A DNA stretch of 64,000 bases from Stegostoma tigrinum. Lineage: Eukaryota. Within the stretch, counting starts at the first letter, position 1. Every line of letters begins with the position of its first letter. Of this stretch, positions 3,206-64,000 are shown one piece after another. The notes under the pieces were generated by a model that did no database searches, was not told the origin of the DNA, and saw nothing but the letters and a program-made list of their open reading frames with translations. The translations under genes were made by a program, and so were the position numbers. The DNA lies in assembly GCF_030684315.1 (NCBI RefSeq), contig NC_081355.1, positions 1,054,001 to 1,118,000 on the forward strand, read 5' to 3'.

Positions 3206-3529
3206 TGGAAAATTTCAGGATTCTGCTTGTGATTCCCTTAACTCTTTTCGCACAGGACAGAATGGAGAGGATATGCCTCTGGGATTCCCAAGTTTCTCTC
3301 TGACAGCCTTCTGTTCCAGGCTTGCCCTCCCTTATCCTCTTGTCCACCAGAACTATCTGTCACAGTTGGTCATCCCTCTGCCTTTCCCAATCTCTTCAGA
3401 TGAATTGCTGATAACCAATTACAGGCTCTGCTTCTTCCATCTGATGGTCAGGGTTACATTCCCACAGTTTCAGTTTGAGGCAAGATATCGAAGATTGTAA
3501 TCAGATTCGCTAAATAAAATGACAGTGTG

Positions 3530-5529: not shown

Positions 5530-5985
5530 TGCTACAAGCTCTGAAGAACTACAACCCCAAGTAGTCCATCCCAAAGCCAATATAGGGAAAATTAGAGACC
5601 AATAGGCTCAACATTGAATTCACTAGCTTCAAAATCTCCCCATCCCCGGCATCATCCCATGTCCAGCCTTTCCTCTCATCACCACATCTTGACCTGACAC
5701 AACCTGTCCATCTTCCTCCTCACCTATCCCACTCCACCTTTCCCATTGGCTAATCTCCGCAACACCCCCAACCTGCATCCATCTATCGCCACCCCACCTA
5801 ACTTCAGCAAACTCTACCCCCCTCCCTCTCTTTATTACAGAGCTTCCATCCTTCTGCTCAGTCCTGATGAAGGGCCCCGACTCGAAACATCGACTTTCCT
5901 GCTCCTCTGATGCTGCTTGACCTGATGTGTTTCTCCCATGCCACACTGTATCGACTCTGACTTCTACCATCTGCCATTTTTGCTT
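5530..5985 (+). mobile_element. Penelope-like element 3' remnant with minimal hammerhead
   Basis: GIY-YIG C-terminal remnant (GLNIEFTSFKIS), then AGTC-CTGATGA(5864-5870)...GAAAC(5884-5888)-ATC-GACT. Confidence 0.8.
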
Positions 5986-6179
5986 TCTCCTCGCCCATTC
6001 CAATTTTTTTTGAATTTTACTAAAAAGTTAGCGATCAAAAATAACCAAGGTAATTGATTTGCATTTGGTATTAAAGAAATAATGATGATGGAGAAATCAA
6101 TACTTAGCAATGAACTTTGCATGAGTCCCAGAGTACTAATGGATAAAAAAAAAACTGCTTTAATTTCAGCTGTGTAGTA

Positions 6180-6204
6180 GGCGGGAGTAACTATGACTCT
6201 CTTA
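6180..6204 (+). other. 28S rRNA fragment (helix 69 region, just upstream of the R2 insertion site); not an rRNA gene
   Basis: GGCGGGAGTAACTATGACTCTCTTA matches the conserved eukaryotic 28S sequence GGCGGGAGTAACTATGACTCTCTTAAGG|TAGCC over 25 nt. The flanks are not rDNA. Confidence 0.93.
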
Positions 6205-6272
6205 GTTACATGGTCGACCACCTCCTCGTGGTTTCCGCCGGAAGCAGGCCTTGCCTGGCCAAGAGTCGACCA
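6180..6272 (+). ncRNA. HDV-like self-cleaving ribozyme, R2 retrotransposon 5' type
   Basis: P1 GGCGGGA(6180-86)/TTCCGCC(6233-39); P2 TGGTCGAC(6211-18)/GTCGACCA(6265-72); P3 ACC(6220-22)/GGT(6230-32); L3 TCCTCGT; P1.1 CC(6224-25)/GG(6240-41); P4 CAGGC(6245-49)/GCCTG(6253-57); J4/2 GCCAA with candidate catalytic C6259. Confidence 0.9.
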
Positions 6273-6619
6273 ACTCGTCTGGGGCTAGCACCCCCAGCCG
6301 TTTAACTGCTGTGCTACGTCATGTAAAAAAATGGAAAAGTCCGAGGCCACTGCTTTGGCACACAGCAGTCGTGGAGGAATTGCCCTCACAATATTATAAT
6401 CTGCATTTACAATGTGTAACACCCTTCTTTTTTCATTGACTTCCACACTGTAATCTTTCAGAAGTTACATTTATAACTAATAATAGCACAAAAAGCTTTA
6501 TGTGGAAATAGTTGCTGAGATAAACATATATGCATTGAAGACGAAATGGTGCAATTTAAAGCATTTTCTCAAAAAAGAGTCAGCCTAAAAAGTCAAGCCA
6601 GACATTTCAAGAACAAAGA

Positions 6620-7370
6620 AATGGCAGATGGAATATAATGTGGGAAAATGTGAGGTTATACACTTTGGTAGGAAGAATCGAGGCATAGACTATTTTCTAA
6701 ATAGGGAAAGGCTTTGGAAATCTAATGGGCAAAGAGACTTAGAAATCTTCATTCATGATTCTCTTACAGTTAACACGCAAGTTCAATTGGCAGTAAGAAA
6801 GAAAATTCATTTCAAGAGGATGAGAATACAAGAGCAGCAATGTATTGGTGAAATTGTATAAGAATCTGGTTAGATTGCATTTGGAATATTGTGAGCAGTT
6901 TGGGGCTCTGTACCTAAAAAAGATGTGCTTGCCTTGGAAGGGGTACAAAGGAGGTTTACAAGAATGATCCTGGGGATGAAGGACATGTCAGCTGAGGAGC
7001 AGATGAGGACTCTGAACCTGACTGAAATTGACAGAATACCTGGAGGCCTGGATAGACTGAATGTGGAGAAAATGTTTCCTCTCGTAGGAGACATTGGAAC
7101 CTATGCTCAGAATGAAGGCAGGGCCTTTTCGAACTGAGATGAAGAATTTCTTCAGCCAGAAGGTGGTCAACCTGTGGAACTCAATGCAGCAGCAGAACGT
7201 GGAGGCCAAGTGATTGGATAAGGTAGATATGTATTTGATTAGTAAGGGAGTCAAGGGTTACTTGGAAAAGGCAGGAGAATGAGTGACAAACATATCAGCT
7301 ACAATCAAGTGGTGGAACAGACTAAATGGGTGAATGGCCTAATTTTGCTTTTGTATCTTGTGGTCTTTTA
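6620..7370 (+). mobile_element. CR1 LINE 3' portion, decayed
   Basis: MEYNVGKCEVIHFGRKN and LALEGVQRRFTRMI are CR1 ORF2 C-terminal motifs, followed by the 3'UTR. Confidence 0.9.
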
Positions 7371-22819: not shown

Positions 22820-23900
22820 TACAACTCCAATCATAGGAGATTATTTTCCGTAATGTCTGTTGACTCCAGTTTTGCTAGGGCTCTTTGATACCACACTTGC
22901 TCGAATGCAGCCTTGTTGTCAAGGGTTGTGACTCTCACCTCACCTCTGGAAGGCAGCTCCTTTGTCCATGTTTGAACCAAGGTTGTAATGAGGTCAAGAG
23001 CTGAATGGCCCTGGCAGAACCCAAACTGGGCATCACTGAGCAGGTTATTGCTGAGCAGTTTTTGCTTGATGACGCTGTCGATGATCGAAAGTCGACTGAT
23101 GGAGCAGTAACTGGCCGAATTGGATTAGTTCTGCTTTGTGTGTACAGAACATAACTGGGCAATTTTCCGCATTTTCGGGTAAATGCCTGTGTTGTAGCTG
23201 AACTCTACCTGCTAAACTTGGGGAGCCGCAAGTTATGGAGCAAAAGTCTTCAATACAATTAAAAGCCAAAAGAACTATGGATGATGTAAGTCAGGAACAA
23301 AAACAAAGTTGCTGGAAAAGCTCAGCAGGCCTGGCAGCATCTTTGGTGGAGAAAACAGAGTTAACGTTTTGGGTCTGGTGACCCTTTCTCAGAACTCAGA
23401 ACCTGAAATGTTAACTCTGTTTTCTCCTCCACAGATACTGCCAGACCTGCTGAGCTTTTCCAGCAACTTTGTTTTTGTGTCTTCAATACAATTGTTGGAA
23501 TATAGTCAGGGCCTTTACAGTATTCAATGTCTTCATCTTCTCCTTGATAAGCAAGGTGTATACCAAGCTCATTGAAGCTTAGCATCTGTGATGCTGAGGA
23601 CCACAGGAGGATGCCAAGATTGATCATCCATTCAGAACTTCTGGGTGAATATTGCTGCAGATCTTTTAGCCCTGTCTTTTATAGTGATGTTCTGGGCACT
23701 GCTCGTTATTGAGAACGGGGATATTTGTGAAACCCCCATCTCAGTTGAGGTTGTTTAATTGGCCAGCAGCATTCTCGGTGGGATGTAACAGGACTGCAGA
23801 GATTAAACCAGCTCTGTCTGTCTTAGTTCTCTCTCTGTATTCACTTTTTATTCCTCCACTTGGCATTCAAGCAATCTTGCATTGTAGCTCTACTGAACTA
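22820..23900 (-). mobile_element. Decayed CR1-group LINE internal fragment
   Basis: KGPDYIPTIVLK motif on the minus strand, interrupted by a PLE fold-back element. Confidence 0.55.
23262..23478. mobile_element. Short fold-back PLE-derived element
   Basis: Inverted arms CAAAAACAAAGTTGCTGGAAAAGCTCAGCAGG / CCTGCTGAGCTTTTCCAGCAACTTTGTTTTTG, flanked by the direct repeat GTCTTCAATACAATT. Confidence 0.85.
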
Positions 23901-63063: not shown

Positions 63064-63723
63064 CTAGCACCAGGCCCTCAGCCACACGTTCAAGTCCATT
63101 ATCTCTCTGTTCCTGCCCTCTCCAGCCTGAGGAACTGGAAGCAAACAGGAGATAACTACCCTGGAAGCCCTGCTTTTCAGCCTTCTTCCGAGTTCTCTGA
63201 AGTCCCGCTGTAGAATGCTACTCCTTTTCTTCCCAACGTCATTAGTGCCGACATGCACCACTATCTCTGGCTCTTCACCTTCACCCTCAAGGATTGTCTG
63301 CACTCTATCAGTGATGTCCTGGGTCCTGGCACCAGGAAGGCAACACACCATCCTCAAATCTAGCCTGTTGCCGCAGAAACCCCTGTCAGTCCCTCTCACA
63401 ATGGAGTCCCTTATTACCACAGTTCTCTGTGATGTCTGACTTCTCGGCTCTGCCTTGACACCAATTTTTGACTCGCAGACCTGTCCACCTCTCGGACTGG
63501 CAGTGTCGTCTGTCTTGGAAACTGTTGAGACAGTCAGCTTGTTTACAATGTGTGCTTCTCCTGGGGTCTCTTGTACTTCATTCATGTCTTCCTTCATCAT
63601 CGACATCCCCCTTCTCTCTTCAGGTATCCTCGGTGTAATGACCTCACTGAAGGTCCTGTCCAGAAAATTCTCATTCTCTTGGATGAACCTGAGGTCATCT
63701 AGTTCTTTCTTCAGGACTGCAGG
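63064..63723 (-). pseudogene. CR1 ORF1, SGNH esterase-like domain
   Basis: VVIRDSIVRG (the GDS motif altered to RDS), CCLPGAR and VVHVGTND. Confidence 0.92.
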
Positions 63724-64000
63724 AATGGTCAATATTGTACCATTGCTCATGTTTGGCTTCAAGGAAAAGTCAGAGAACTGTAAAAAGGTAAGTCTGATGT
63801 CAGTGGTAGCTACACTGTTGGGAGGATTCTAAGAGATAGAAGTTACATGCTTTTGGAAAGGCAATGACTGATTTTGGATAGTCACAATCACAATATTGAG
63901 TTTTTTGAGGAGGTCACCAAGAAGATAGATGATGTCAGAGCAGTAGATATTGTCGACATAGACTTTAACATGGCCTTCAGAACGGTCCCACATGGTAGGC
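63724..64000 (+). mobile_element. Older CR1 RT region, right part
   Basis: VNIVPLL, VSLMSVV and EFFEEVTKKIDDVRAVD continue the element interrupted at 59842. Confidence 0.8.

Follow-up and report, generated by a model that had tools for sequence, protein, structure and literature searches.

Positions 6180 to 6383 of a 64,000-nucleotide stretch of the Stegostoma tigrinum genome (contig NC_081355.1, positions 1,054,001 to 1,118,000, the whole of which we call the window) hold the first 204 nt of an R2 retrotransposon, stranded outside the rDNA in which such elements make their living. It is part of a two-zinc-finger R2 with intact relatives in the 28S arrays of the same genome, and it is a dead piece of an already known type of element. 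We consider it likely that the fragment arose through off-target TPRT by the shark's own R2 at a TAGCC site, probably as a copy that already lacked its 3' end. A wider reading, to which we give an even chance, is that shark R2 primes at TAGC-only sites on RNA without a 3' UTR, inserting ribozyme heads, and that some 50 strays are time-ordered fossils of one rDNA master which has changed about 10 times (at third positions about 18 times) faster than host DNA over thousands of cycles. The parts of the window copy, all on the plus strand, are:

6177-6179, +: 5' junction GTA, of ambiguous parse: non-templated or duplicated bases, or bases belonging to the target
6180-6383, +: R2 5' region of 204 nt, older subfamily, by homology
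6180-6204, +: 28S-derived leader of 25 nt, matching the 28S junction of the rDNA-resident copy L045; its first base is G(-28), the predicted self-cleavage site
6180-6271, +: predicted HDV-like ribozyme, P1 to P4 plus a J1/2 hairpin, by alignment and pairing
6180-6186/6233-6239, +: P1, 7 bp, perfect pairing
6187-6193/6203-6209, +: J1/2 hairpin, 7 bp, absent from the original prediction
6212-6219/6263 and 6265-6271, +: P2, with 6264 bulged
6220-6222/6230-6232, +: P3
6223-6229, +: L3
6224-6225/6240-6241, +: P1.1
6245-6249/6253-6257, +: P4
C6259, +: predicted catalytic base in J4/2, its role assigned by position
6272-6383, +: rest of the R2 5' region, homologous by tblastn to the part of the intact frame that just precedes its first zinc finger
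6382-6384, +: GCC remnant of the pre-insertion TAGCC, from the empty site in run X9 and a sister R2 at the break

From the cleavage site onward the window copy is homologous to the 5' end of the parent element, with 95% identity to its sisters L031 and L032 and 80% to L045, which upholds the proposal that it is a DNA copy of a processed R2 5' end lying outside rDNA. By tblastn, window positions 6292-6393 match residues 59-92 of the L045 stop-to-stop frame. The 28S match begins at G6180 and the bases upstream are not 28S, as first described and as the 28S context in L045 makes visible; the coordinates and motifs of that description are sound except at the far end, where the element continues to 6383, 111 nt beyond the boundary proposed. 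The label 'orphan' had to be given up: a search of the shark's own genome returned 33 matches, most spanning ~6180 to 6383 and most of those running on into the R2 ORF. The window copy itself stops at nt 204, with a complete ORF and 3' UTR absent, and further R2 pieces were found neither within the window nor in the 10 kb upstream of it. Both flanks are single-copy in the genome, and neither junction shows a tail, a target duplication or a partner element. Contigs from runs X1 and X2 (two samples of the species, from one study) bridge the two junctions, covering 5960-6218 and 6298-6620, so that an assembly chimera, raised at the outset as a danger, is ruled out. No single contig contains the whole insert, and G6258 and A6264 appear in no contig, though contigs drop variants.

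The parent is readily seen. L045 is a 3646-nt element in an rDNA contig with LSU rRNA on both sides (that is, between 28S halves), whose 1177-aa stop-free frame encodes two C2H2 fingers and an RT; its best PDB matches are R2 proteins (E 3e-100 to 3e-78) and reach residue 1059 of 1103, and Pfam detected neither a Myb domain nor a restriction-like endonuclease in it. Canonical 28S insertions in rDNA contigs comprise L045, L050, L051 and L071, and the surmise that this lineage has R2 is thereby confirmed by intact 28S-inserted copies in the same genome. In L050 the leader is duplicated in tandem, which passages of PMC3774820 give as a known mark of R2 cleavage at -28.

All the HDV-fold elements originally recognised (P1, P1.1, P2, P3, P4, L3 and J4/2) are in place and form by sequence; the 32 named pairs of the window copy, J1/2 hairpin included, would together make a nested double pseudoknot. 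Across 23 family copies the named structure pairs in 91.7% of 723 cells, against 20-45% in slid controls. One compensatory change (n=1), in P2, was seen in this 23-copy alignment, A-U in 14 copies and G-C in 8, and probably arose once and was inherited; the shuffle control, which ignores relatedness, gives a modest 8/500. All 23 copies carry C6259 unchanged, next to a variable 6260. Two features suspected of being defects are nothing of the kind: C6219 is likewise invariant (23/23) and pairs with G6263 in 21 of 23 copies, next to the bulged 6264, and G-C outnumbers every other pair at P1 position 1, occurring in 9 of 23. Both are shared across the family, so neither is private to the window copy. 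Its two private ribozyme changes relative to seven sisters are G6258 and A6264; of these, A6264 has a counterpart in the live rDNA copies and G6258 in one older copy.

Over the whole window Rfam reports no family at gathering score, its sub-threshold HDV-like match being drz-agam-1 (19.4 bits, cut-off 37, E 2.2), and since Rfam alone gives only this, the identity rests on homology; of the two signs named beforehand, a covariance-model hit came only at this sub-threshold level, whereas similarity to R2 5' ends was found. MFE folding, a method blind to pseudoknots, gives z -1.5 and an alternative P1. A covariance model built from these copies, whose scores for them are circular, located no second ribozyme in the window. 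In the live rDNA subfamily (L045, L050, L051) the 3' strand of P1 is one base shorter and includes a C-C mismatch; copies of this subfamily nonetheless start at G(-28), and the window's older subfamily has a perfect P1. RNA from the window copy may still self-cleave if transcribed.

For a census of R2, the shark's genome was searched with the window, two 3' ends and a young 5' end, and one stretch was fetched per distinct place; the resulting counts are lower bounds, and 40 of 201 candidate 28S pieces in the assembly were scored. The fetched loci hold 49 insertions outside 28S against 7 in 28S sequence, the latter divided between array contigs (4) and dispersed 28S pieces (3). Among the 49 strays, 22 are 5'-truncated and 27 reach into the 28S leader; the latter comprise 16 collinear copies possessing both ends, 2 whose 5' part is inverted and 9 that are 5'-only. 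Keeping the 5' end, first described as the reverse of the norm, is common here, with 27 of 49 keeping the leader. Exactly 12 of these 27 start at G(-28), the others 1-20 nt inside it, and none carries 28S sequence from further upstream; together with the tandem leader of L050, this pattern of starts is fossil evidence of cleavage at -28, of the type set out in PMC3774820.

Three ectopic copies, L048 (C47), L056 (C27) and L043 (C14), are full-length or nearly so, with stop-free frames of 1152-1183 aa, and L048 is 99% identical to an rDNA copy, so off-target insertion is recent. An inverted 5' part occurs in three ectopic copies, L033/L072 (C23), L042/L090 (C17) and L079 (C15), which resemble twin-priming or snap-back products; in two of them the ribozyme end is fused to or beside the 3' part. 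L053 (G000:C49, 3454706-3455476) and L074 (G000:C28, 35400308-35400752) share an internal deletion that joins ~nt 562 to nt 3404, one lying within a decayed 28S piece and the other ectopic at TAGCC, and look like a mobilised SIDE-like non-autonomous R2. In L037 (C3:45380517) the leader keeps 28S sequence all the way to the insertion site and has a short duplication besides, a variant of the junction inherited from its master. Loose ends in run X9 show a related species with its own leader-bearing R2 at a flank absent from this genome's list, so off-target insertion takes place there too.

Junctions at the 3' end were examined at 39 non-28S loci, of which L082 and L083 were dropped (no recognisable end), leaving 37. 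TAG follows in 33 of the 37 and TAGC in 28, against backgrounds of 1.1% and 0.22%; TAGC is the sequence of the 28S nick, and the match fades by position 6. Upstream flanks have scant likeness to 28S (12.3 against 11.8 of 30, p 0.02). The same TAGC-type signature marks off-target insertions of avian R2 in human cells, as reported in passages of PMC11371274. Local paralogues give the upstream context of 3 of the 37 junctions and none reads TAGC (e.g. TGGC, TAAC), so some TAGC bases may come from the RNA tail; their origin in the target or in the tail is demonstrable for few copies. The nine 5'-only copies end at nine different places and belong to differing subfamilies, and six end at 76-238 nt, inside the first 240 of 3646 nt (p ~6e-6, two end points having been judged by eye). 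Stretches extending 9.5-10 kb beyond L034, L055, L058 and L059 contain no R2 remainder, and several 5'-only copies adjoin other repeats. Adjacent flanks could be had from local paralogues for only two of the nine (L084, L086), whose repeat targets are nearly intact on both sides. L086 (C5:14009545-14009770), a 227-nt R2 5' fragment 99% like the live element, is the youngest of the nine; the repeat that surrounds it is intact, a 4-5 nt duplication is present and TAGC is missing, so more than one route may lead to 5'-only copies.

At the window locus itself, the orthologous site in a related species, where the original prediction had advised looking, proves to be empty. One contig of run X9 joins 6176 to 6382 with 8 letters between and ~7-8% mismatches in the flanks; the 8 letters end in TA, GCC follows, and the empty site thus reads TAGCC at the junction. 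Run X13, a second run of the related species, leaves the site uncovered, and the empty site is read from that one contig. TAGC would fall within +/-4 nt by chance in ~1.9% of cases, and the junction has a second parse in which TAG is left on the 5' side. The R2 sequence breaks at TTGC, a 3/4 match to TAGC whose GC is common to the target (the GC of the 6382-6384 remnant being present at the R2 break point as well); such 3-of-4 matches occur at 4% of R2 positions, which makes the mimic weak evidence. The window's 3' break lies within 3 nt of the expected nick. Given TAGCC in the relative's empty site, these sequences suggest that R2's own machinery likely chose the site.

In the mechanism that we favour, the R2 protein would occasionally nick or prime at non-rDNA sites sharing only ~4 nt (TAGC) downstream of the nick, a step whose signature is visible in the junctions and whose nicking is presumed. 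Priming would then take place on the RNA at TTGC, nt 200-204, which mimics a TAGC tail, or synthesis would immediately jump there, and only the 5' head would be copied; internal priming and an immediate template jump fit the window junction equally well. The cDNA end, finding no 28S for annealing, would be joined directly and the 28S leader, present in the sequence, would be kept, after which the copy would have decayed as a dead fossil. Lacking a 3' UTR, it is not expected to be mobilised. TPRT is held, in passages of PMC11371274, to require the 3' module, which counts against this mechanism. The window copy was probably inserted already without its 3' 3.4 kb.

The rival history that survives best, possible and on balance rather unlikely, has a full-length R2 inserting off-target at TAGCC and later losing 3.44 kb in a deletion from the GC at nt 203-204 to the GC of TAGC. 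Such full insertions exist (the 16 collinear both-end copies outside 28S), the window junction shows 2 nt of microhomology, and copies of similar age have many private indels. Its right break, however, must land within 3 nt of the element's end, the ends of 5'-only copies cluster at 76-238 nt, and L086 was already 5'-only within an intact target while still 99% identical to the live element; the required precision, the six short ends in nine and the targets of L084 and L086 are why insertion in truncated form is favoured over later deletion. Improbable, in turn, is that a stable ribozyme-capped RNA was patched into a DNA break or, as one of the origins first entertained has it, copied in trans by another RT (CR1, L2 or Penelope). 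HDV-like folds are nuclease resistant according to passages of PMC11331408, short 5'-only copies are clustered in length, L086 has no TAGC and several of its kind abut other repeats; against this, the empty site bears R2's own TAGCC, at a chance of ~2%, and neither tail, target duplication nor partner element accompanies the window copy in its single-copy flanks.

We put still less weight, indeed very little, on the window copy being a functional self-cleaving element retained and co-opted by the host. All stems and C6259 are intact, P1 is a perfect 7 bp and the copy is present in two samples of the species, but it is absent in the related species, its 2 private changes in a 92-nt ribozyme on a terminal branch of 0.021 fit neutral decay at such an age, and a scan of 120 of the 224 unmasked ORFs turned up domains of transposon type only, with no host gene or exon among them. 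Membership in a ribozyme-headed, SINE- or SIDE-like non-autonomous family is scarcely credible: nine 5'-only copies exist and L053/L074 shows that an internally deleted R2 can move here, yet the nine share no common 3' end (nine end points, mixed subfamilies, no 3' UTR), a scan for the core motif located 30 sites, 28 of them known and 2 lacking R2 context, and where SIDEs join a 5' ribozyme to an R2 3' end and share their ends, the window copy has no 3' end and a unique break.

The 28 long copies form a ladder-shaped tree: 19 of 25 inner branches are well supported, the rDNA-resident group is at the tip and terminal branches shorten toward it. Recombinant mosaics as a cause of the ladder were considered and rejected, there being no switch in 340-nt windows of 12 copies. 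Codon changes were counted in 22 copies over 677 codons, six long copies being omitted because they were too short, highly divergent or internally deleted: private changes run close to neutrality (174 synonymous, 333 non-synonymous, 19 stops), whereas shared changes bear the stamp of purifying selection (445 synonymous, 160 non-synonymous, 5 stops; p 5e-42 against private), and no frameshift is shared among the 22. Measured for 19 copies, the distance along the trunk to L045 amounts to 5.8-15.7 own-branch lengths, or 7.6-67 at third positions (median ~18), and the excess holds over own-branch lengths from 0.001 to 0.046. From these counts and ratios it follows that the strays were dead on arrival and that one selected master has been changing ~10 times faster than they decay. 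The ectopic copies are thus a ladder ending in the live rDNA element, with a rate excess of ~10 (third codon positions ~18) that is roughly steady across ages. The substitution rate of an R2 RT has been measured, according to passages of PMC11331410, at close to 1e-4 per strand; at that rate, which belongs to another species' enzyme, a third-position distance near 1.0 would translate, as a rough estimate, into several thousand serial retrotransposition cycles. The order of the copies is consistent with their presence or absence in the relative, in which the window copy (branch 0.021) is absent and L038 (0.05-0.06) apparently shared, by a matching flank in loose ends.

Whereas rDNA is expected to lose its old R2 copies, the strays remain and so preserve the master's history. 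The 49 of them likely record how often, and where, R2 missed its target over time, and the ladder portrays a single lineage under continuous selection, whose rate has stayed roughly 10-fold above that of its dead copies. If the wider reading is true, they would offer an in vivo record of natural off-target insertion, and a clock for a vertebrate R2 calibrated against its host. R2 proteins are under development for gene insertion, and the 37 natural junctions with their TAGC-only signature, together with the 3'-less products and 5' inversions, are the germline equivalent of off-target data from cell culture. A 2026 review (PMC13580325) lists as open why rDNA turnover has not eliminated R2 and how strictly R2 is targeted; the stray set makes these questions of specificity and persistence directly testable. 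R2 typically evolves at host-like rates, according to passages of PMC2048585.

Several known systems invite comparison. The two-finger R2 of sharks and rays (C-type, lineage D) described in passages of PMC13188248 shares the 28S target, C2H2 fingers, RT, -28 ribozyme and rDNA copies with the element here, but those passages describe no ectopic copies, as against 49 outside 28S and 7 within it in this genome. The earwig, jewel wasp and silkmoth R2 ribozymes in passages of PMC3774820 have the same P1 strand from 28S -28 to -22, the same core and the tandem leader; the window copy differs in lying outside rDNA and in a J1/2 hairpin that pairs R2 sequence with leader, its ribozyme being a predicted one. 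In passages of PMC11371274, off-target sites of avian R2 in PRINT share few primer-complementary bases past the nick, and its snap-back junctions are like the 5' inversions seen here; the shark insertions, by contrast, are natural germline events spread over evolutionary time, and products free of the 3' module are not regarded there as TPRT. Stray R2 copies are also in print for Drosophila (PMC2718515, in passages), where they are likewise dead and not founders of the current rDNA population; those are 1-2% divergent and often incomplete, whereas the shark's are up to ~30-35% divergent from the live element and are arranged as a ladder. R2NS-1_SMed and R2NS-1_CSi (passages of PMC5035012) are R2 copies similarly dispersed outside 28S, but propagation independent of 28S, which sets R2NS apart, was not found among the shark copies: the selected trunk ends in 28S copies and the strays, with near-neutral private changes, decay, so that specificity here is leaky, not lost. 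The R2 SIDEs in passages of PMC3414825 are also short and ribozyme-headed, and keep the 3' end that the window copy does not. In literature covered incompletely and without supplements (that of PMC13188248 may list the element), we found no natural vertebrate off-target series, 3'-less R2 insertions or trunk-to-fossil rate ratio.

Two minor observations concern the rest of the window. Some 300 nt upstream of the R2 fragment, at 5860-5900, CTGATGA...GAAA in the end of a Penelope-like repeat resembles a degenerate hammerhead, a motif for which Rfam gave no match. On the minus strand, GDSL/OSK-like and RT domain fragments at 63067-63828 and 22834-23124 are probably LINE remnants.
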